In this document: one piece after another, positions 11,639 to 42,653 of the stretch
Layout: each line of letters opens with the position of its first letter
How positions within the stretch are numbered: the stretch's first letter is position 1
Assembly: GCA_024398875.1 (NCBI GenBank)
Contig: JAKSIJ010000006.1
Coordinates: 59,802-123,801, forward strand
DNA from: Fibrobacter sp.
GTDB lineage: Bacteria > Fibrobacterota > Fibrobacteria > Fibrobacterales > Fibrobacteraceae
DNA: 64,000 bases
Direction of reading: 5' to 3'
The notes under the pieces: generated by a model
Seen by the model: the letters and a program-made list of their open reading frames with translations, nothing else
What the model was told of the DNA's origin: nothing
The model's database searches: none
Program-made: the position numbers and the translations under genes

Positions 11639-13675
11639 TTAAAACCCCTGGGTGAATGTGAGCCGGTATTCTCGCCCCGGCATGGGGAAAGGCGAATAGG
11701 CGTTTCGATACGTTTCGTCCGTAATGTTTTCGACTGCAAAAACAAAGCGTGTTTGCGTATAAGGTGTAAAACCTAAAGCGGCACGATGGTTGGGCACCGC
11801 AGGCTGCTCCAGGCGATTTCCGCGGTCTTCATAAATTTTGGTGCGGTAGGAACTGGCCCAGGTAAAATCAAAATGGAAGGGCAACTGCAACTTGGCTTCC
11901 GTATAATAACTCTGCACAGGTTCACCAGGAAGATTCTTATCACGGTAAGCAACATCATCCGTGTGGTCCAAGGCCTTCTGAATCGTAGCCCCCATCAGCA
12001 CCTGCAAGAATTTCGCCGGATGACTTTCCAAGTTCAGTTCCAACCCGCGAATGCGAACCTCCCCCACATTCAAAGCCTTCATGAAAGCGCCGCTTGTAAC
12101 CCAGTAAATCCCGTTATCCACGGCGGTTTCGTAGTATGTTACCCGCAGTGTAGAAATTTTTTTGGGTGTAGAAGCGAAGAGGCCGCCCTCAAAGCGCAGG
12201 GATGTTTCCTCCTTCAAATCTGGATTGGAAACGACCCCCGGGTAGACGCCATACAATTCCATCAGTTGCGGCTGGCGATAGAAGCGCCCGAGGCTTATAT
12301 GCCCGCCAAAATAGCCCGCGGGCTGTGTCAGCAAAATCGCCCCGCGGTAAGAGTAGGAAGCGTCCCGATTGCTGGCGGTTTTCAACTTCTGCGTTGCAGT
12401 AGGGAGCACGAATTTTCCACCATCGATGTCGTCTTGCAATAGCTGGAGGGATGCCTCGCCCGAGGTAGCAAGCCAGCGAGTGATGTGGAAGTTCACCTCG
12501 CCTGCAGCATTTCCAGAATAGCGTTCCAGCGCCCACTCCCGAGAAGTTCCGCGGGCCTCCATGCGGTCGAAGCCGCCTGCAATCCGGAGCGTTGCCACAA
12601 GTCGCTCACCCAAATATTCCGCAGTTATTTCCGGCAGCAGATGATAGCCCGCAGCACCATACTCCAGATATTCTGTGGAGAAGTATCCGATGTGATCCAG
12701 CGGATAGTAAGAGTGGGAAACGTTCTTCTCAAAACGTCCCGAAAGGCCCGCCGTAAGCCACAGCCAGCCCAACAACTCTGGCGATTCCAGACGATAACTG
12801 AGGGTAGCATTTTCCCCCTCGTAGCCTGCAACTTTCGTCTGGAATTCTCCGCGGCCAGGATTTCCACCTTCGGCATACGCGCCGTTGAAAGCGAGCGTAG
12901 AGAAGGCGCCGTTCCCGTGCAAAATCCGAAGTTCCGCACTACCCGAATACTCCGTAAAATCTGCATTCTCCCGATTTGCCGTAAAGTCGTCATCCTTATT
13001 GTAGGGCGTTCCATTTTCACTCTTGAATTCATAGTCATTGTCGGAATGCCTGGCAGAAACTCCCGCCGTAAAGCCCACACTGTCTGTAATTGCGGAGTTA
13101 ATTTGGATTGCCGTCTCCCAGTAGTTGTGGCTTCCGTAAGCGGCGAGGAATTTACCCGACGATTCCTGGTTAGAAACTTTTGCGGACTTGGTAATGAAAT
13201 TTACAGCGCCGCCAACTCCCGAACCGCCAAATTTTACAGGCACACGATCCTTATAAACCTCAATTTTTTCAACCTGGTTCAAGTCAATTCGTCCCAAATC
13301 CACCGCACCACCGCTGCCGTCATTGAGAGGGACGCCGTTCACGCAAATCAAAATATCCTGGCCAGCAATTCCCCGAATGCTGATGGTCTGAAAACTCCCC
13401 ACGCCACCTTGGGAATGAGCCTCCACGCCTGTGAGAGAAGAAAGCAGTTCTGCCGCCGAAATGCCGCGGCCCTCCCATGCTTCCGGCGAAATTTCTTCAT
13501 AAGAAGATTGCTTTTGCGACGTTTCAAAAGTGTCAGCACCCGCAATCTCGCTTGCACCCAAATCACGAATAGGCCCATCTTCAGCAACAGCCAAAGAAAG
13601 CCATCCACACACAGGAAGACACAGACAAAGTAATCTACGGAATCCCGTAGTGGTTAAAGCCAACGTCTCTCGCAT
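11639..13675 (-). CDS. btuB: TonB-dependent receptor, probable cobalamin transporter
   Basis: Plug motifs ISIRG, NGVPLND, VEKIEVYK, GGAVNFIT; SNPDLKEETS; C-terminal Phe; B12 riboswitch upstream. Confidence 0.85.
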   Translation of the reverse strand: MRETLALTTTGFRRLLCLCLPVCGWLSLAVAEDGPIRDLGASEIAGADTFETSQKQSSYEEISPEAWEGRGISAAELLSSLTGVEAHSQGGVGSFQTISIRGIAGQDILICVNGVPLNDGSGGAVDLGRIDLNQVEKIEVYKDRVPVKFGGSGVGGAVNFITKSAKVSNQESSGKFLAAYGSHNYWETAIQINSAITDSVGFTAGVSARHSDNDYEFKSENGTPYNKDDDFTANRENADFTEYSGSAELRILHGNGAFSTLAFNGAYAEGGNPGRGEFQTKVAGYEGENATLSYRLESPELLGWLWLTAGLSGRFEKNVSHSYYPLDHIGYFSTEYLEYGAAGYHLLPEITAEYLGERLVATLRIAGGFDRMEARGTSREWALERYSGNAAGEVNFHITRWLATSGEASLQLLQDDIDGGKFVLPTATQKLKTASNRDASYSYRGAILLTQPAGYFGGHISLGRFYRQPQLMELYGVYPGVVSNPDLKEETSLRFEGGLFASTPKKISTLRVTYYETAVDNGIYWVTSGAFMKALNVGEVRIRGLELNLESHPAKFLQVLMGATIQKALDHTDDVAYRDKNLPGEPVQSYYTEAKLQLPFHFDFTWASSYRTKIYEDRGNRLEQPAVPNHRAALGFTPYTQTRFVFAVENITDETYRNAYSPFPMPGREYRLTFTQGF

Positions 13676-13723
13676 TCAGCCTCAAAGTTGCGGCATAACG
13701 CTTTGCGCCATGCCCGTGGAGCC

Positions 13724-13945
13724 TTACAGTTCTTCTGACTCGGGAATCATCCTACTTCCAGCCCCTTCACATCTGGCTTCGCAGTTGCCTGCCCGCCAAA
13801 CATTGGTTTTTGCTGGTTTCGTCCTCCCTTACAGCGGCGGGACCGTTCCCGAATTTGCCTTGGCGTTTTGCCAGTTGCAGCACGGGATTCTCTTACAAAG
13901 TAGGCCGGCGATTCACAAACCGCGACACCCCACCTTGCAGCCTTT
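13724..13945 (-). ncRNA. Cobalamin (B12) riboswitch
   Basis: Minus strand reads AGAGAATCCCGTG...TTCGGGAACGGTCCCGCCGCTGTAAG...GAGTCAGAAGAACTG, the hallmark B12-element segments, about 50 nt upstream of btuB. Boundaries are approximate. Confidence 0.85.
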
Positions 13946-13974: not shown

Positions 13975-14008
13975 TAAAAAATCGCGAGCCATTCCGTGCC
14001 CGCGATTA
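13975..14008 (-). terminator. Probable intrinsic terminator downstream of ackA
   Basis: AATCGCG...CGCGATT stem followed by a T run on the minus strand. Confidence 0.5.
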
Positions 14009-14090
14009 ATTGTAAATTGTGAATTTTGAATTGTGAATTGATAACTAAGGCGAGTGAAGCGACCAAGCTTGTTTGGGCATTTCCGAGCCG
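13997..14090. repeat. Modular intergenic repeat, copy A (15-bp module, heptamer array, 43-bp module)
   Basis: The reverse complement of 14048-14090 matches 42127-42169 at 39/43. 13997-14011 is the exact reverse complement of 41894-41908. An AATTGTG/AATTTTG heptamer array lies between them. Confidence 0.85.
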
Positions 14091-14119
14091 GTTATCAACA
14101 ATGACAAAGTCATTAATTG

Positions 14120-18814: not shown

Positions 18815-19705
18815 ATGCTTTCCAAAGACGTTCTCAAAACTGTTAGCCAGATTGAACTTTCTGTGCGGGGCACCCTGGATTCTGTGATGACCGGAGCGTA
18901 CCACAGTTCGTTCAAAGGGAACGGCATGGAATTTAGCGAAGTCCGGGAATACGTGCCCGGAGATGATGTCCGTGAAATTGATTGGAATGTAACGGCCAGA
19001 ACGGGCACTCCCTACGTCAAGAAGTTTGTGGAAGAGCGTGAAATGACCATGCTTTTGATGGTCGACGCATCCAGCAGTTCGGAATTCGGTAGCGGAAAGC
19101 AGATGAAGGGCGAAGTCATGGCAACCCTCACCGCGCTTCTCGCCTTCGCCGCCATCAAAAATAACGACAAAGTCGGGCTATTGATTTATACAGACCAGGT
19201 GGAGCTTTTCATTCCGCCGGAGAAAGGCCGCAAGCACGTGCTGCGGCTCATTCGCGAAATTCTCTACTTCAAGCCGCAGCACCACGGCACGAACACCCAG
19301 GTGGCGCTGGAATACGCCGGCAAGATTCTCAACCGTCGTGCCGTCGTCGTGGTGATGAGCGACTTTCTGGACGAAGGCTTCGAGACGGCATTCAAGATTC
19401 TCCGCAAACGCCACGACGTGCTTGCGGTGTCTGTGGTGGACCCCCGCGAAATGCAGCTACCGCCCGCAGGACTTGTAGAACTGGAAGATCCTGAAACCGG
19501 CGAGACGCTTCTCATCGATACAGGCGATGTAGCCTTCCGTGAAGCATTCGCCCGCGAGGCAAAACGGCAAGGGAAAGCCACTAAGGAACTTTTCCAGCGC
19601 ATGTCCGTGGATTTTGTCCGGGTTGAAATTCATGATGAATTCAGGGATACGGTAGCGCCTCTCATCGAGCACTTCCGCCGCCGTGCCCGAGCCGCGCACC
19701 GCTAA
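18815..19705 (+). CDS. DUF58 / vWA-like MoxR partner
   Basis: KGNGMEFSEVREYVPGDDVREIDWNVTAR, VDASSS, SDFLD. Confidence 0.93.
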   Translation: MLSKDVLKTVSQIELSVRGTLDSVMTGAYHSSFKGNGMEFSEVREYVPGDDVREIDWNVTARTGTPYVKKFVEEREMTMLLMVDASSSSEFGSGKQMKGEVMATLTALLAFAAIKNNDKVGLLIYTDQVELFIPPEKGRKHVLRLIREILYFKPQHHGTNTQVALEYAGKILNRRAVVVVMSDFLDEGFETAFKILRKRHDVLAVSVVDPREMQLPPAGLVELEDPETGETLLIDTGDVAFREAFAREAKRQGKATKELFQRMSVDFVRVEIHDEFRDTVAPLIEHFRRRARAAHR

Positions 19706-21699
19706 TCCGTCGCAGGCCTAAATCCCAGCAACTTCAAGCTATAAAGTGCAGTGCCCTTGCTGATGCTGCGTACACCTGTGGCATAGCCAAAAATTTTCCG
19801 GAGCGGAATTTCAGCTTTCAAGGTATGGATGCGTCCATCGCCGCCAATTTCCTTAACCTGACCATCACGACTCTGGATATCCCCCGTCACTACTCCCGCA
19901 AAATTCGCTGGGCATTCCAGCGAAAGTTCCATCACGGGTTCAAAAAGTTCAATATCCGCAGGCTTGATGAGCTTGATGACCGCGTCTGCGCAAGCCTTTT
20001 TTATCATGAAGGGTAGCGCCCCTTCCGTCCACTCAAAATTATGGACTTCAAAACGCACACCTACAAGAGGACCCTTTCCGAGAACGCCGATTTCAGTGGT
20101 CTCCAAAAGGGCGGAACGCACGCCCGCAAGAATCTCGCGGGGAGCCTTTTCCATAAATTCTGCGGCAAGACGAATGTCATGAGCCTCCGTTTCAAGAGGC
20201 TCTGCCGAGAGCCGGATGGAAATTTTATGAGGGCCAATCTGGAATGTATTTTCCACAGGACCCACGTTATGGCAAAGCCGTTCCTGCCAGCGAACTTCCG
20301 GCTGGCCCGCCCGCACCTCGCAGCCAAATTCCCGCTGTAGGCGGGCAAGCAAAACTTCCAATTGCACCTCGCCTACAGTATGCAGATACCAGAACCCGCC
20401 ATCCTCATGCTGCACGCGGAAACTGGGGTCCATGCGGCTGAGGGTCGAGAGGCTCTTTTCCACATGATGGTAGTCTTCGGTACTCACGCATTCAATGCGG
20501 GTCTGCAAAAGAGGCTGGTAGCGGTCACCAAAAACGCTACAGCTAGCCCCTAGATTGCTTCGGCCGTCGGCCTCGCAATGACGTATTCCGTTGTCGGGGC
20601 TCGCAATTTTCGCCACACAACCATCCCGCAAAACAATCTGACCAAGTTCCGTTTCAAAAGGCGCCCGCATGGCATAAATGTCACCCGCACGGATTTCTTC
20701 CACCGGCAAAAGCAAGTTTGCCTTAAGCCGCGAGAATTCAAAACCCGCTGGCCATTCCTTCCGCTCCATATCAGTGTGGGCCCGAAACAGCGAAATCTCG
20801 CCAATCCCTTTAAAATGCCGCAGGCGAATAACTTGACCGAGTTCGCCATCACTAAACTCCGGAACCTCCGGCAAAAAGAAGCTGAGGCCCGTCACAAGGC
20901 TCCGCACACCAAAACCCGCCAGCGCAGATCCCGCATAGCAGAGCGCATAGCCATCGCTCGCCACAAGCTTTCGCAGACCTTTCAGAAGCATCTTGGGCGG
21001 CACAGGCTTCTTGTTCATAGCAAAAGCGAGGACTTCGTCATCAAAATTGCTTGCAAACTCCACCGCTTCCGCATAGCACTTCTTGATTTCGCGGGAATGA
21101 TCCCAGCCATCTTCCACATTCCAGCCTTCATCTACGGCTTCTTCGCCTGTTTCGGAATGTTCCAAACGGCTCTGGCTCAACACATCGAACACAGCGGTCA
21201 TTTTGCCGTCGGTATATTCGGGAAGCGTCATCTGCACCGGGCGCACGCCCAGCACCTCTTCTACATTAATGAGCGTTTCGTCCAGCGAATAATCTGCATT
21301 GTCCAGCTTGTTGATGAAAATGATGGTGGGGACGCCTGCTTCACGCAATTTTCGCCAGGCAGCGACTGTCTGCGTTTCCACGCCACTGGCAGCACTCACT
21401 ACAAGTACGGCCCCCTCCACAGCAGAGAGTGCCATATCCACTTCGGCGCCAAAATCCACATGCCCCGGAGTATCTATGAAATTAAACCAGGTGTTCTTCC
21501 ACTCGAAATGAGCGACACCACTTTCAATGGTAATTCCCCGCTCCTTCTCCTCCGGCATGTAATCCATGGTAGCAAGGCCATCTTCCACCTTGCCCGGGCG
21601 CCGAACTTCACCCGCCGTAAAAAGGATGCGCTCGGAAAGGGTCGTCTTTCCGGCATCCACATGAGCCAAGATGGCTATGTTACGGATGGGCTGCGTCAT
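19702..21699 (-). CDS. Elongation factor G-like translational GTPase (divergent EF-G paralog)
   Basis: AHVDAGKTT, ERGITI, DTPGHVDF, INKLD, plus EF-G-like domain III and V segments (DPSF, FEPVM, FGYA). Confidence 0.88.
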   Translation of the reverse strand: MTQPIRNIAILAHVDAGKTTLSERILFTAGEVRRPGKVEDGLATMDYMPEEKERGITIESGVAHFEWKNTWFNFIDTPGHVDFGAEVDMALSAVEGAVLVVSAASGVETQTVAAWRKLREAGVPTIIFINKLDNADYSLDETLINVEEVLGVRPVQMTLPEYTDGKMTAVFDVLSQSRLEHSETGEEAVDEGWNVEDGWDHSREIKKCYAEAVEFASNFDDEVLAFAMNKKPVPPKMLLKGLRKLVASDGYALCYAGSALAGFGVRSLVTGLSFFLPEVPEFSDGELGQVIRLRHFKGIGEISLFRAHTDMERKEWPAGFEFSRLKANLLLPVEEIRAGDIYAMRAPFETELGQIVLRDGCVAKIASPDNGIRHCEADGRSNLGASCSVFGDRYQPLLQTRIECVSTEDYHHVEKSLSTLSRMDPSFRVQHEDGGFWYLHTVGEVQLEVLLARLQREFGCEVRAGQPEVRWQERLCHNVGPVENTFQIGPHKISIRLSAEPLETEAHDIRLAAEFMEKAPREILAGVRSALLETTEIGVLGKGPLVGVRFEVHNFEWTEGALPFMIKKACADAVIKLIKPADIELFEPVMELSLECPANFAGVVTGDIQSRDGQVKEIGGDGRIHTLKAEIPLRKIFGYATGVRSISKGTALYSLKLLGFRPATD

Positions 21700-23798: not shown

Positions 23799-25175
23799 AT
23801 GAAACATACATGGAAAATCTTAACTCTCGTTAGTTTTATGGCAATGGGTGTATTTGCGCAACAGACAACCACTGCCACTACTCCGTCGGCTCCAGCTGCT
23901 GAACAACCTGCAGCCCCAGCCGCCGCACCTGCTGCTCCTGCTGCCGCACCGGCCGACACCGCAAAGGCCGCTCCTGCCGCAAAACCCGCTCCCGCAGCGA
24001 AGCAGGACTCCACAAAGGCGGCTCCTGTAGCAAAGCAAGACTCCGCAAAAACCGCACCAGCAGCAGCTCCTGCCGATACGGCAAAGGCAGCCCCAGCCGC
24101 AAAACCGGACACAACAAAGGCTGCACCTAAGGCTGATTCCACTAAAATCGCTCCTGCCGCAAAGCAGGACACGACCAAGGCCGCACCTAAGGCTGATTCC
24201 GCTAAAGTAGCGCCTGCTGCAAAACCGGACACAACTAAGGCCACTCCGGCACCTCAAGACACTTCCGTTGCGGCCAAAGATTCTACAAAGGCAGACACCT
24301 CCGCAACCGCTGACACCGCCAAGGTCGACTCCGCAGCCGCTCCTGCTAGGGTAGATACAGTCTACATCGTCAAGGACACCACAAAGAGCGAGAAAATGCG
24401 CGGCAAGCGCTACTTCAAGGATCATCAGGATTCTGTGATGGCCGAGAAAGCCAAGCGCGATTCCCTAACAACCAATCATGGTATTTCCGTCATGTTCGGG
24501 AATAACAACGACAAGCGCTATGGTTACATCGGTTCTCAAGATGACTATGATGATCACTGGGGTGCTGGTTTCGGTATCTACTACTTCTACCGTCACTACT
24601 TCGGCAGCCATTTTGCTTTGGAAGGTCGTCTCGGCGGTGTATACCGCTATGCTCGCTGGTCCCAAGACCTTGACTTCCCTCAATACTACAACATCGCCCG
24701 ACTCGGCAATGGCAAGTACGACCTGAACCATCATGTCGATATCTACTATGACAACTACGCCATTGACGCTCCGCTTTCTGCTAAGGTTGGTGGTCATATT
24801 GGCGCAACAGAATTCCTCTATGCTGGTGTCACCCTCAGCCTTATGAAGGACTTCTACGATAAGGTAACCTCCCGCAACGAACTCACCTTGAAGAACGTCT
24901 CTCCAGAAATGAAGAAGGATTTGGAAATTCTTGAAAAGGAAGGAAAAAATCCCTTCCCCATGGTGGAAGACCACTACACCAGCGACTGGTACCAGATGGT
25001 GGACTGGGAATCTGGATTGTGGGCAAACTTCGGCCTCGATTCCAAGTTCTTCTCTGTGGAAGCTCAGTTGCTCATTATGTCTGCTGCTACGACAGACTAC
25101 AACCACCGGTTTGAATATCTGGGCCATGACTGGAACCCGACATGGCGCATATTTGTGGACTTTAGCATCAGGTAA
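23799..25175 (+). CDS. Secreted/outer-membrane protein with an Ala/Pro/Lys/Thr repeat stalk and a probable beta-barrel C-terminal domain
   Basis: Signal peptide; about 180 aa of repeats (GCACCTAAGGCTGATTCC recurs with a 60-nt period); aromatic alternating beta-strand pattern ending IFVDFSIR. Confidence 0.75.
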   Translation: MKHTWKILTLVSFMAMGVFAQQTTTATTPSAPAAEQPAAPAAAPAAPAAAPADTAKAAPAAKPAPAAKQDSTKAAPVAKQDSAKTAPAAAPADTAKAAPAAKPDTTKAAPKADSTKIAPAAKQDTTKAAPKADSAKVAPAAKPDTTKATPAPQDTSVAAKDSTKADTSATADTAKVDSAAAPARVDTVYIVKDTTKSEKMRGKRYFKDHQDSVMAEKAKRDSLTTNHGISVMFGNNNDKRYGYIGSQDDYDDHWGAGFGIYYFYRHYFGSHFALEGRLGGVYRYARWSQDLDFPQYYNIARLGNGKYDLNHHVDIYYDNYAIDAPLSAKVGGHIGATEFLYAGVTLSLMKDFYDKVTSRNELTLKNVSPEMKKDLEILEKEGKNPFPMVEDHYTSDWYQMVDWESGLWANFGLDSKFFSVEAQLLIMSAATTDYNHRFEYLGHDWNPTWRIFVDFSIR

Positions 25176-40653: not shown

Positions 40654-41205
40654 ATGCAGTTTGCCAGCTTGAAATCCCGAATTCTCCTGATTTTGGCCTC
40701 CCTCTGGGTCCGAAGCCTCAGAATCCGGCTCCACGCCCCAGCGGATTACCGCCCCGGAGTCCTGGGACTGTGGCATCGGGATTTGCTGGCCAGCACCGCC
40801 TGCTTCAAGAATAAAGACGTCCATGTGCTGATTTCGGAATCCAAGGATGGGGAATTTTTTGCGAAACTGGTTGCAAAACTTGGGTACAAAGTCACCCGAG
40901 GGTCCGACAGCCACGGCGCCCTCAACGTGCGGCACCTTCTGCGGACATTGAAAGAGGATGGGTTTGTGGGAATGGCCCTAGACGGCCCCCGCGGTCCGGC
41001 ACTTGAAGTCAAGCCCGGATCTTATTGGCTCGCTGAAACAGCAAACCGCCCCCTGTGGCTTATCGAGCCCCATTATGGGCCTCATTTTTCTCTAAAATCC
41101 TGGGATAAATTCATCGTTCCCTTGCCCCTGACAGCGATTGACATTCAAATTAAATATCTTTCGGACGTAGTTGAACATTCTAACCTAAAAGGAAAACAGC
41201 CGTGA
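40654..41205 (+). CDS. DUF374 / lysophospholipid acyltransferase-like protein
   Basis: WH, LISESKDGE, VTRGS, ALDGPRGP, LKSWDKFIVPLP. Confidence 0.82.
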   Translation: MQFASLKSRILLILASLWVRSLRIRLHAPADYRPGVLGLWHRDLLASTACFKNKDVHVLISESKDGEFFAKLVAKLGYKVTRGSDSHGALNVRHLLRTLKEDGFVGMALDGPRGPALEVKPGSYWLAETANRPLWLIEPHYGPHFSLKSWDKFIVPLPLTAIDIQIKYLSDVVEHSNLKGKQP

Positions 41206-41867
41206 TTGCAATGCCGCCTAAATTTGTCGCTTTTGACCTGGAAACGACTGGACTTGTTTGTGGAAAAGATGAAATTATCGAAATCGGTGCCGTGAAATTC
41301 ACCGTGGAAACCAAGGCCGGACGCGTGGTTCCCAAAATCGAGAAGGAATTCGAAACCTTCGTGAAGCCGAGCATGATGATTCCTGCCGAAGCTTCCAGCG
41401 TGAACCACATTACCGACGCCATGGTGGAAAACGCTCCTCTTCCGGGCGAAGCCATCAAGAACTTTGCAAACTTCTGCGGGCAGGGTTCCATCCTCCTCGC
41501 CCACAACGCCAATTTCGACTCCAGTTTTTTGCGGGATGCCTACAAGAAGAATCCGCAGTTCGTGCCCGGGAACCCCATCGTGGATAGCCTCGCCATCGCC
41601 CGCACCATTCTGCCGGAACTCACCGACGAAACGGGCAAGCACAACCACAAGCTGGGCTTTTTAGCCAACATGTTCAAGCGCCGGAATGAAATCGCCATGA
41701 GCATTGATTCCGACAAGATGCACCGTGCGGTCTATGACTGCGAAATGCTGATGGAAGTGTTTGTGGCGCTGCTCCGCCGCCGCCTGAAAGAGAAGGACTG
41801 GGAGATGGGGAGCATTATGCAGGCCATGGCCAAGTATAAAGGCATCCCACAGTTCCTGAACAAATAA
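41202..41867 (+). CDS. DEDDh 3'-5' exonuclease (DnaQ-like)
   Basis: FDLETTG, EIIEIGAV, AHNANFD, DSL, HRAVYD; GTG start overlapping the DUF374 stop. Confidence 0.92.
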   Translation: MIAMPPKFVAFDLETTGLVCGKDEIIEIGAVKFTVETKAGRVVPKIEKEFETFVKPSMMIPAEASSVNHITDAMVENAPLPGEAIKNFANFCGQGSILLAHNANFDSSFLRDAYKKNPQFVPGNPIVDSLAIARTILPELTDETGKHNHKLGFLANMFKRRNEIAMSIDSDKMHRAVYDCEMLMEVFVALLRRRLKEKDWEMGSIMQAMAKYKGIPQFLNK

Positions 41868-42190
41868 TGCAGAATGCTGAATGCGGAATGATGAATTAAT
41901 CGCGGGCAATGACGCGTCCGAGGCTTCTCATAATTCATACTTCGTAATTAATAATTTTTGGATTGCCGCGCTACGCTCGCAATGACGCTTACGAAGCAAT
42001 TCACAATTCAAAATTTAAAATTCAAAATTCACAATTATCTTATGAGAGTTCTTCGTCAGAAGCCTCTCGTACTTCATACTTCATAACTCATAATTTATAA
42101 TTAGTGCTTCGCACTCATTTTGACTTCGGCTCGGAAGCGCCCAAGCAAGCTTGGTCGTTTCACTCGCCTCGACAAAATTCATAATTACAT
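41866..42190. repeat. Modular intergenic repeat, copy B: four heptamer arrays interleaved with hairpin modules
   Basis: AATGCAG/AATGCTG/AATGCGG/AATGATG; CTCATAA/TTCATAC/TTCGTAA; AATTCAC/AATTCAA/AATTTAA; CTCGTAC/TTCATAC/TTCATAA arrays; REP-like GGATTGCCGCGCTACGCTCGCAATGAC; 43-bp module. Confidence 0.85.
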
Positions 42191-42400
42191 TATGGGCGTT
42201 GGTTCGTTACAGACTGTAACCCAGTATTCGCCCTCGCACCCAGAGACGCAGGACCCGTCGTGAATCTCCCTCCGGTCCAGTTTGATGACATTGGCATCAT
42301 TGCAGAGATTGCTTTTTGTCCGCTGCTCCGAATAGGTGTCCGGAGCGCAAGCCATAAAAAGACTGCATAAAATACACAAAACACCGCCATGCGTTAGCAT
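42185..42400 (-). CDS. Small Cys-rich putative lipoprotein (71 aa)
   Basis: MLTHGGVLCILCSLFMA-C lipobox and four further Cys; directly downstream of rpmB. Confidence 0.5.
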   Translation of the reverse strand: MLTHGGVLCILCSLFMACAPDTYSEQRTKSNLCNDANVIKLDRREIHDGSCVSGCEGEYWVTVCNEPTPIM

Positions 42401-42431
42401 AGCGGCTTTGCGAAAATTTCTATTGAAGAAA

Positions 42432-42653
42432 TTAGATGCCAAGTTCAGCAGCGACGGCCTGAATGCCACGCTTGCTGATGGTACGGAGACCAGCGGCACT
42501 GACGCGGAGGGTAACCCAGCGGTCTTCTTCAGGAATATAGAAACGCTTCTTCTGGAGGTTGGGAAGCTGCTTCATCAACTTCTTACGATTGGAGTGGGAA
42601 ACCATGTTACCCACGAGGCCGGCTTTTCCGGTGACTTCACAAATACGGCTCAT
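42432..42653 (-). CDS. rpmB: 50S ribosomal protein L28
   Basis: [39 protein letters not shown]. Confidence 0.97.

Follow-up and report, generated by a model that had tools for sequence, protein, structure and literature searches.

The question raised by positions 41866-42190 of a 64,000-nt stretch of DNA from a horse-gut Fibrobacter sp. (contig JAKSIJ010000006.1; this whole stretch is hereafter the window) is what kind of element fills the gap between two converging genes with four 7-bp tandem arrays that alternate with hairpin modules. We propose, with a probability of roughly 0.65, that the gap holds an intergenic mosaic resembling BIMEs (bacterial interspersed mosaic elements), where heptad arrays serve as landing pads for non-autonomous hairpin elements and the parts are reshuffled by unequal recombination. 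All arrays and modules that an earlier note had listed for this region were found by sequence reading and with Tandem Repeats Finder (TRF), and all coordinates were confirmed (Table 1). The alternation described there also stood, whereas the right boundary had to be moved to the stop codon at 42185-42187. The mosaic therefore runs from stop codon to stop codon and occupies the complete 317-nt spacer (41868-42184) between the convergent genes, the TAA of the left-hand gene (41865-41867) abutting the first heptad.

With regard to the arrays, the spacer contains 129 period-7 self-matches (z 6.1), the mean of 500 dinucleotide-preserving shuffles being 80 +/- 8. Period 14 is also raised (z 5.3), and the remaining periods from 2 to 15 all stay at |z|<2. 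The arrays are four in number, as reported earlier, but they are not four different ones. Arrays 2-4 all vary a single heptad on the same strand (NAATTCA, in different registers), whose ATTC/AATT core recurs at intervals of 7 nt; array 1 is the inverted orientation of the common heptad (GAAT core; reverse complement ATTCNGC), in a form that also occurs at the Fibrobacter loci L239 and L247. Array 3 is free of G on the + strand, and in DNA runs the depth summed over it is 18-35x the flanking value. One other comparable array passes a strict threshold in the 64-kb window (14005-14044, beside the second copy of a 43-bp module described below), and no array of period 5, 6, 8 or 9 does. Across about 190 kb of Fibrobacter loci, 34 period-7 arrays were found, versus 0-5 for the other periods among 4-12; they come in many motif variants, with wide differences from locus to locus and from species to species (AATTCAC, CATTCTG, TGTTAAT, GGAAGTA and others). 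The possibility that the arrays pair with one another as long stems was rejected by inspection, as arrays 2-4 are same-sense and only their AATT cores could pair.

The main element among the hairpin modules is a double-hairpin element (H4). It is 75-82 nt long, and the 43-bp CAAGCTTG module (inside 42118-42177) is its core. The copy in the mosaic comprises a small hairpin, AGTGC-TTC-GCACT, at 42103-42115 and a long three-segment hairpin at 42118-42177, the latter with an outer stem (TTTTGAC/GaCAAAA), an internal loop in which GGCTCGG faces CTCGCC, and an inner stem closed by a CAAG tetraloop. The internal loop and the tetraloop are invariant across copies. The outer stems are wholly different between subfamilies yet always complementary: four different, fully complementary versions (TTTTGAC/GaCAAAA, TTGATAAC/GTTATCAA, CAAATGC/GCATTTG and TAGATGC/GCATCTA) were found, together with several different small hairpins. 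In the core, 6 of the 16 pairs show changes on both sides, the observed values being reached by at most 1 of 500 shuffles, and among eight distinct 41-nt cores 89% of cells are paired, compared with 34-44% for slid partners. The thermodynamic fold agrees with the covariation structure (-24.1 kcal/mol, z -2.6). A self-search recovered the CAAGCTTG module at 14048-14090 on the - strand (90.7% identity, E 1e-9), adjoining an AATTCAC array and the sequence AATTAATCGCGGGCA; the element to which this copy belongs has the small hairpin AATGAC-TTT-GTCATT and the outer stem TTGATAAC/GTTATCAA.

A covariance model built from 16 copies detected two copies in the window and no more, scoring 79 and 70 bits on the strand of the element and at most 19 bits on the other; more divergent ones, which retain the CAAG loop, were detected in other Fibrobacter loci. 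On 1.09 Mb of unrelated viral DNA it gave one match at E<0.01 and a second at only E 0.06. The earlier expectation of dispersed, multi-copy repeats was borne out: over 41965-42177, summed contig depth in four public runs was 16-35x that of the flanking genes, with many different sequences joined at the module borders. In three isolate-like runs, the depth of the element was 190-350 compared with about 9, spread over 15-26 separate contig pieces, which by depth ratio corresponds to about 20-40 copies per genome. Near-identical copies were also found at unrelated loci of the metagenome-assembled genome (MAG) JAKSIK01. Scanning one genome per species in GTDB with the right half of the module returned 16 loci, 14 of them in six Fibrobacter MAGs (from horse faeces and other sources) and the remaining two evident chance matches. 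The earlier attribution of the DNA to a Fibrobacter was thereby supported. A looser pattern of the element matched the JGI metagenome collection only twice, both times by chance in high-GC coding DNA. Judging from these searches, the double-hairpin element appears to be almost restricted to Fibrobacter. A divergent copy of 30.9 bits, with its CAAG loop retained, lies at 931-991 of L027 (IMGVR_UViG_3300028805_000072), a contig of 126 kb classed as 'viral', in which AATTCAC arrays are present too; it may be either a Fibrobacter phage or bacterial DNA that was misclassified.

The suggestion that the arrays act as insertion targets was supported by the placement of the copies. Ten of the 16 lie within 60 nt of a heptad array and 13 within 90 nt, compared with 2.9% of positions. 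As the flanking heptads differ locus by locus, they are not carried by the element. The element stands 3' of AATT or CATT at 10 of 13 loci and has AATT or ATT on both flanks at most loci, with 7-8 bp repeats at L243 and L240; the periodic target leaves a range of 4 to 7-8 bp for the length of any target duplication. One array (L248, 7422-7667) holds three tandem 92-nt double-hairpin units, which are mutually divergent and have compensating stems, and in the copy at L240 (1294-1526) the CAAG loop holds a nested insertion of about 80 nt.

Filled and empty sites, for which a comparison of strains had been proposed, were found at ackA. Seven contigs that encode a 100% identical AckA fall into two allele groups after the stop codon. 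In the filled alleles (L258 and L261-263, with the window alike), TAACAATT is followed by the 75-nt element AATGAC...GTTATC and then by AATTCACAATTC..., whereas the empty alleles (L257, L260 and L259) read TAACAATTTAAAATTCAAAATT..., an uninterrupted heptad array. When the element is taken out along with one AATT, the heptads are back in phase, as read by eye, at six loci (ackA, the 42-kb site, L239, L242, L247 and L252). The restored arrays, the varied flanks, the proximity to arrays, the tandem and nested copies and the near-identical copies at unrelated loci all point to insertion into heptad arrays. The ackA-btuB spacer of MAG JAKSIK01 (L259, 3670-4401) is without the ackA element and has a different terminator hairpin, AACCGCGGG..CTCGCGGTT; it also contains an extra segment of about 350 nt with a divergent double-hairpin copy on the opposite strand (50.5 bits).

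The spacer next to rpmB was compared between strains in contigs from NCBI, ENA and Logan assemblies that encode an identical L28 protein and are about 94.4-97.2% identical to the window DNA. At least seven module arrangements were observed, ranging from 86 nt (array 1, H1 and a short array) to about 370 nt, and H4 is missing from the 42-kb site in strain L010. In pairwise alignments the alleles differ by whole blocks bounded by direct repeats of 9, 13 or 25 bp (Table 1). Module H1 is duplicated or lost through 13-bp CGCGGGCAATGAC repeats, and array 2 differs from that of strain L002 by exactly 14 nt, i.e. two heptads. Such block indels appear to be the signature of slippage and unequal recombination, and the shuffling from strain to strain is attributed to unequal recombination between shared repeats. 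The description of the mosaic as 'actively shuffled' thus holds in that it is reshuffled between strains of one species, but at this locus the process appears to be mostly slippage or unequal recombination rather than transposition. The modules were found to be neither rare nor invariant, the two properties by which the earlier note would have been contradicted. A further reading would explain the mosaic as an artefact of assembly or as low-complexity sequence that arose by chance. Short-read assemblies are indeed broken by repeats, and contigs do end inside the mosaic, but the same architecture recurs in independent NCBI, ENA and Logan assemblies, the periodicity is significant and covariation is present, so that this reading was ruled out.

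The position of the mosaic suggests a different explanation, namely that its hairpins are functional structures of 3' untranslated regions (3'-UTRs) or terminators, selected to stop or protect the converging transcripts of the RNase_T gene and the rpmB-lipoprotein operon in the manner of REP (repetitive extragenic palindromic) sequences and BIMEs of E. coli, with the heptads as unstructured spacers or entry sites for RNase or Rho. The exact fit of the mosaic to the convergent spacer, the covariation of the hairpins and the G-poor sense strand of arrays 2-4 are consistent with this. At ackA, an element and an array stand between the stop codon and a strong intrinsic terminator, the 5' arm of which is a sequence common to module H1. 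Contigs from RNA runs cover 42047-42214 and 42113-42459, some joining modules to neighbouring gene ends, although these are unstranded metatranscriptome contigs, which may include DNA and break at repeats. Against a terminator or 3'-end role, strains whose neighbouring proteins are identical differ in whether they carry the element, and copies also occur in 5' regions (L247 and L252). The orientation of the element to the flanking genes is mixed, sense at about five loci and antisense at about six (the flanking open reading frames, ORFs, were identified by reading as methionine aminopeptidase, RecN, RlmH, a glucanotransferase and others), which argues against a strand-specific RNA role. A terminator scan of 41868-42184 returned only a weak AGTGCTTCGCACT+CATTTTG match, and no other hairpin of the 42-kb mosaic is followed by a U-tract; intrinsic terminators were found outside the mosaic, at 13976-14007 (-) and 42383-42406 (-). 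Global folding of the spacer was unremarkable compared with shuffles (z -1.9 and -0.9), and a single large structured RNA across it was rejected on this basis. Taken together, a 3'-UTR or terminator function is possible but unlikely as the explanation of the mosaic. The region had no Rfam match at the gathering threshold (best sub-threshold E 0.25), in agreement with its earlier description as undescribed.

The other three modules differ from H4 and from one another. The proposal that all modules are hairpins held for the GAGAG hairpin (H3) and the double-hairpin element, which fold well, but not for the two GCAATGAC modules, H1 and H2, whose window copies fold no better than shuffles (z about 0; H1 alone, z -0.01). 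The stem of H3 consists of one inverted and one direct heptad (TTATGAG / CTCGTAC); a variant, H3a, is found in strains L002, L004 and L001, and another copy at the unrelated locus L247. H1 is a partial copy of the consensus to which H2 conforms. The 15-mer AATTAATCGCGGGCA at 41894-41908, which comprises the last seven bases of array 1 and the first eight of H1, is identical to the start of the terminator at 13976-14007, and GCAATGACGC occurs twice in the mosaic, at 41906 and 41979. All modules within 41901-42177 share a direct orientation.

H2, i.e. the GGATTGC..CTCGCAATGACG / GGATTGC..GCAATGACG module, was found to belong to a cosmopolitan REP/REPIN-like family (REPINs being REP doublets that form hairpins) with the consensus [G/A]GATTGC(TTCG|CACG|CGCG)-variable stem-loop-CTCGCAATGAC[A/G]. 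The window holds three H2-type copies alongside the two of H4, and those at 41960-41990 (gap CGCGCTACG) and 20552-20583 (gap TTCGGCCGTCGGC) match the consensus exactly. Fibrobacter copies covary (ATTGC/GCAAT versus ATCGC/GCGAT; GCCC/GGGC versus GGCC/GGCC). Scanning viral contigs for GATTGC-N8-24-CTCGCAATGAC returned at least 207 copies at at least 120 loci (L264-L382), a count that proves little alone, since about 100 matches could be due to chance for a pattern of this size. That the family is real is indicated by the shared gap starts (186 of the 207 gaps among the matches listed begin TTCG, CACG or CGCG), the variable but perfectly complementary stem-loops of the interior, the dense copies in phage (up to 15 in 13 kb of genuine phage with portal, terminase and capsid genes) and the wide range of host GC content (0.32-0.69). 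BLAST located the family in alpha- and gammaproteobacterial plasmids, namely those of Novosphingobium (at least 40 places in one record), Methylobacterium, Methylosinus, Halomonas and Psychrobacter, and in heterocystous cyanobacteria including Nostoc punctiforme. In N. punctiforme (pNPUN03, L383) and Novosphingobium (pSA1, L384) the copies form inverted doublets about 15-20 nt apart, which is the REPIN layout, and inverted doublets also occur in many viral contigs. With respect to neighbouring ORFs, 132 copies lie on the same strand and 115 on the opposite one, i.e. without strand bias. None of six phage loci in which the H2-type hairpin is frequent gave an Rfam match, annotated phage and plasmid records show no annotation where the family matches, and no description of the GATTGC..CTCGCAATGAC family was found in Rfam or by sequence string in the literature. 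The idea of one Fibrobacter-specific composite family consequently had to be given up, the H2 module being present in phages, proteobacterial plasmids and cyanobacteria.

The third window member of the family, at 20552-20583, lies within an ORF, between domains II and III of an EF-G-family protein, where it is read as ..GIRHCEADGRSNLG.. and adds no length in an alignment with solved EF-G structures. Two readings are offered for it: an insertion of the replacement type into a divergent EF-G paralogue, or a coincidence, the latter being very unlikely (12-mer plus stem, p about 3e-5 by estimate).

The inverted doublets raise the possibility of a classical REP/BIME system, in which a REP-associated tyrosine transposase (RAYT, an HUH Y1 transposase) encoded elsewhere in the genome would mobilise every one of the hairpins, these being REPs or REPINs. 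N. punctiforme is among the RAYT-bearing genomes (PMC3116915), and the modules are intergenic, palindromic, multi-copy and mosaic. H2, H3 and the H4 core are GC-rich imperfect extragenic palindromes of about 20-40 nt, the copy at 20552-20583 being the exception in lying in an ORF. However, the conserved GTAG/GTGG head of RAYT-associated REPs, as tabulated in PMC2817692, occurs in no module: the head is GTCATTGCGAG (GTCA) in H2, GGCTCGG/GGCGAG in H4 and GAGAG in H3. The window modules are all direct rather than alternating, inverted doublets of the H2 family being found only in other organisms, and copies number in the tens (about 20-40 for H4) and not in the hundreds (>100 per genome) as for REPs. 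The H2 family is furthermore abundant in bona fide phage genomes, which carry no RAYTs, and no RAYT was seen among the ORFs beside element copies, with no whole-genome search made. Membership of the RAYT/REP class fails on head, orientation and copy number, and a RAYT-driven origin of the mosaic is doubtful. With regard to a match to a described REP or MITE (miniature inverted-repeat transposable element) family, which had been named as a possible refutation, neither class fits, although H2 is a member of a REP/REPIN-like family without an Rfam entry.

The likeness to such systems is nevertheless considerable. As in the BIMEs of Enterobacteria and Pseudomonas, GC-rich imperfect palindromes separated by short conserved motifs occur in multiple intergenic copies, often between convergent genes, and the number of modules varies between strains. 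Unlike BIMEs, the Fibrobacter mosaics have heptanucleotide arrays as spacers, direct modules, no GTAG/GTGG head and copies in the tens, and no RAYT was identified. REPINs (Bertels and Rainey 2011, PMC3116915) resemble the GATTGC..CTCGCAATGAC inverted doublets with a short spacer seen elsewhere, and the Fibrobacter long hairpin is likewise a self-complementary unit with covarying stems. In contrast to REPINs, the cosmopolitan hairpin of the window is a singlet, its family is also abundant in phage genomes and the link to a RAYT is only a candidate one. MITEs and the palindrome-associated transposable elements (PATEs) derived from IS200/IS605 insertion sequences are similarly small, non-coding and polymorphic in presence, as the Fibrobacter element is at ackA and rpmB. 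They too have hairpins at both ends, which compares with the two back-to-back hairpins of the element, and its preference for the short target AATT recalls the tetra- and pentanucleotide targets of IS200/IS605; these likenesses agree with a PATE but are not diagnostic of one. As a MITE the element is ruled out by its ends, since AGTGC.../...GACAA and AATGAC.../...GTTATC do not form terminal inverted repeats. Also unlike MITEs and PATEs, no parent insertion sequence or TnpA was identified, and the target duplication is undecidable. The mosaic is not a CRISPR array either, as had been stated before; there is no constant repeat of 23-50 nt, and a repeat search returned only 56-nt units of 66-71% similarity.

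The nearest parallel is reportedly found in Nostoc, where heptameric short tandemly repeated repetitive (STRR) arrays are combined with very small mobile hairpin repeats. These small dispersed repeats are said to be hairpin-forming mobile elements of 21-27 nt without a transposase of their own, recognised as insertions by ortholog comparison and often nested in other repeats, including tandem heptamers. They would be shorter than the 75-82-nt Fibrobacter element and unrelated to it in sequence.

The heptad arrays themselves have counterparts as well. The Fibrobacter arrays are tandem, degenerate, intergenic 7-nt units of variable number and in this respect belong to the class of heptameric simple sequence repeats (SSRs). 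Like the cyanobacterial STRRs and the GGGAATC repeats of Xanthomonas (PMC4692102), they are overwhelmingly intergenic, lie near the end of the upstream ORF and sometimes form inverted pairs. The G-rich motifs of those repeats (GGGGATT, GGGAATC) are absent, however: Fibrobacter, a member of a different phylum, has A/T-rich ones (AATTCAN, TTCATAN, AATGCNG, CATTCTG, TGTTAAT) without G-quadruplex potential, and hairpin elements demonstrably break up its arrays. In IMG/VR contigs with a GC content of 0.21-0.64 (viral loci L011-L238), heptad arrays that lack G and are A/T-rich (AATTCAN, TTAACAN) are common as well. Exact three-unit arrays of both motifs are abundant there, intergenic and often just upstream of start codons. 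TTAACA, meant as the control for AATTCA as a special heptad, was likewise abundant and is itself a naturally used heptad. Among the matches listed, 76 of 128 TTAACAN arrays lay within 50 nt upstream of an ORF start in sense, versus 15 of 128 in antisense; for AATTCAN the figures were 45 and 22 of 136. This sense-strand bias may reflect a leader or translation-related role in phages. Taken with the published survey (PMC4692102), the viral scans show that heptamer arrays are a general bacterial and phage feature.

It could also be proposed, by analogy, that the heptads are protein-binding iterons, i.e. cooperative sites for a DNA-binding protein (omega-repressor-heptad or centromere-like) or a nucleoid protein, to which the hairpins would be secondary. 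The strict 7-bp register with its conserved 4-nt core and free flanking positions, the presence of both direct and inverted orientations and the sense-strand bias of similar viral arrays just upstream of start codons would agree with such sites. On the other side, the motif variants are widely different between loci and species, array copy number changes freely between strains and there is no candidate protein; we regard this explanation as very improbable.

We therefore return to the reading of the mosaic as landing pads with inserted hairpins, which would comprise two layers. In the first, degenerate heptanucleotide arrays fill the spacer and would change length by slipped-strand mispairing. 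In the second, small non-autonomous hairpin elements would have landed in or next to the arrays: the Fibrobacter-restricted 75-82-nt double-hairpin element, the GAGAG hairpin and singlets of the GATTGC..CTCGCAATGAC REP/REPIN-like hairpin. The double-hairpin element would spread to new loci by insertion at AATT within heptads, its AATT flanks being either a 4-bp duplication or an AATT of the element itself, between which the periodic target does not discriminate. The catalyst of insertion is presumably an enzyme acting in trans, which would read the hairpin in its folded form, including the invariant GGCTCGG/CTCGCC loop and the CAAG loop. In a spacer that has come to hold several modules, blocks would be duplicated, deleted and reordered through unequal recombination, either between heptads or between module copies. 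The elements would be essentially selfish or neutral passengers, and their hairpins at most incidental barriers at transcript 3' ends.

Several observations weigh against this reading. As the target is periodic, each filled and empty allele pair might in formal terms stem from a microhomology deletion, with short direct repeats (CAATT, CATAATT) at its ends, 3 of the 16 element copies have no heptad array nearby, and the element has no terminal inverted repeats and an ambiguous target duplication. The mobilising enzyme that had been expected beside the copies was not evident: no transposase or RAYT-like ORF was found next to 14 of them, where the ORFs, read by eye and with no whole-genome search, were housekeeping-like. 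The internal loop and tetraloop conserved across species could equally reflect a cellular function in protein or RNA recognition, and the elements are probably transcribed, as metatranscriptome contigs join modules to gene ends. Finally, the model leaves the period of 7 without explanation. A bolder version would treat heptads and hairpins as one self-propagating system, in which a hairpin-recognising enzyme, probably acting on single-strand DNA, inserts at AATT in DNA of 7-nt period and its insertion/excision cycles, or the slippage that it provokes, both generate and extend the arrays. We consider this improbable; if true, it would offer a mechanistic handle on the over-represented heptameric repeats of bacterial and phage genomes and would be relevant to where the cosmopolitan GATTGC..CTCGCAATGAC hairpins come from.

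Table 1. Features of the mosaic, its flanks and the second element locus in the window, and blocks that differ between strains
Feature	Position	Strand	Remarks
RNase_T-family 3'-5' exonuclease gene, left flank	41202-41867	+	Pfam PF00929, E 8e-32; gene called in orthologous loci
Heptad array 1 (AATGCAG AATGCTG AATGCGG AATGATG AATTAAT)	41866-41900	+	TRF period 7, 4.4 copies (TRF span 41866-41896)
Module H1 (CGCGGGCAATGACGCGTCCGAGGC; the CGCGGGCAATGACGCG.. module)	41901-41924	+	Degenerate, weakly folding relative of the GCAATGAC hairpin
Heptad array 2 (TTCTCAT AATTCAT ACTTCGT AATTAAT AATT)	41925-41956	+	TRF period 7, 4.1 copies (TRF span 41928-41956)
Module H2 (GGATTGC CGCG CTACG CTCGCAATGAC G + CTTACGAAGC; GGATTGCC..GCAATGACGC)	41960-41997	+	Short-form canonical member of the cosmopolitan hairpin family
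Heptad array 3 (AATTCAC AATTCAA AATTTAA AATTCAA AATTCAC AATT)	41998-42036	+	TRF period 7, 5.6 copies, score 57
Module H3, GAGAG..CTCTC hairpin (ATCTTATGAGAG TTCTTCGTCAGAAGC CTCTCGTAC)	42037-42072	+	Fold -13.1 kcal/mol, z -4.1
Heptad array 4 (TTCATAC TTCATAA CTCATAA TTTATAA TT)	42073-42102	+	TRF period 7/14 (span 42070-42100); period-7 scan
Double-hairpin element H4	42103-42177	+	Covariance model 70.5 bits on +, <=19 bits on -; AATT on both flanks
Last heptad remnant (TTCATAATTACA)	42178-42189	+	First 7 nt, TTCATAA, are 42178-42184; remainder enters the stop codon of the convergent gene
Gene for putative 73-aa Cys-rich lipoprotein (MLTHGGVLCILCSLFMAC...), right flank	42185-42406	-	Stop 42185-42187; called as a gene in L009
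rpmB terminator	42383-42406	-	Terminator scan
rpmB	42432-42653	-	Precedes the lipoprotein gene
ackA intrinsic terminator (AATCGCGGGC-acggaatg-GCTCGCGATT + TTTTT)	13976-14007	-	-15.9 kcal/mol, z -5.4, then U-run
AATTCAC-type heptad array	14005-14039	-	TRF period 7, 4.7 copies, score 52; between double-hairpin element and ackA terminator
Second double-hairpin copy, different subfamily	14040-14114	-	79.2 bits; core 90.7% identical; 8 nt past the ackA stop
Third window member of the GATTGC family (AGATTGC TTCG GCCGTCGGC CTCGCAATGAC G)	20552-20583	+	Inside EF-G-family ORF 19702-21699 (-), read in frame
146-nt block			Bounded by direct CTCATAATT copies
62-nt block			Bounded by direct CGCGGGCAATGAC copies
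125-nt block			Bounded by direct 25-nt heptad blocks

With regard to the genes around the mosaic, a Pfam search gave no match for the 73-aa lipoprotein, the reading frame of which is preserved despite the strain differences. Between rpmB and the mosaic, strains carry either this gene or two unrelated genes for secreted proteins of 271 aa and 196 aa without a clear Pfam assignment; the divergence begins directly after the rpmB stop and has its other end in the mosaic (42185-42431 of the window, set against 10223-11721 of L001 and its equivalents in L003, L005, L006 and L008). The small ORF was considered as a leftover of the 271/196-aa cassette, which was rejected as there is no similarity. L003 also differs beyond the RNase_T gene, where a Fib_succ_major protein is found. 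At the other element locus, a cobalamin riboswitch (64 bits; 13708-13935, -) lies directly downstream of the ackA terminator and upstream of a TonB-dependent receptor gene (11639-13675, Plug domain). At 24089-24242 lies a 60-nt tandem repeat (TRF score 217, 2.6 copies, 81% matches), probably in coding sequence of a repetitive kind, and 21-nt repeats are found close by, at 23906-23950.

The mosaic belongs to a familiar general kind, probably selfish, repeat-type DNA, in a combination undescribed for Fibrobacterota as far as our literature search shows; searches of the Fibrobacter literature by REP and heptamer topics and by sequence strings found no description of such a repeat landscape. It documents for this phylum a landscape of heptanucleotide arrays and at least three families of hairpin elements, and it ties a local oddity to two poorly explained phenomena, the excess of heptameric SSRs and a REPIN-like cosmopolitan hairpin outside Rfam. 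The clean filled and empty alleles between near-identical strains are raw material for working out how such tiny elements move. In practical terms, the mosaics break short-read assemblies of gut Fibrobacter MAGs. They also mark recombination-prone borders of variable gene cassettes and could serve as strain-typing markers.

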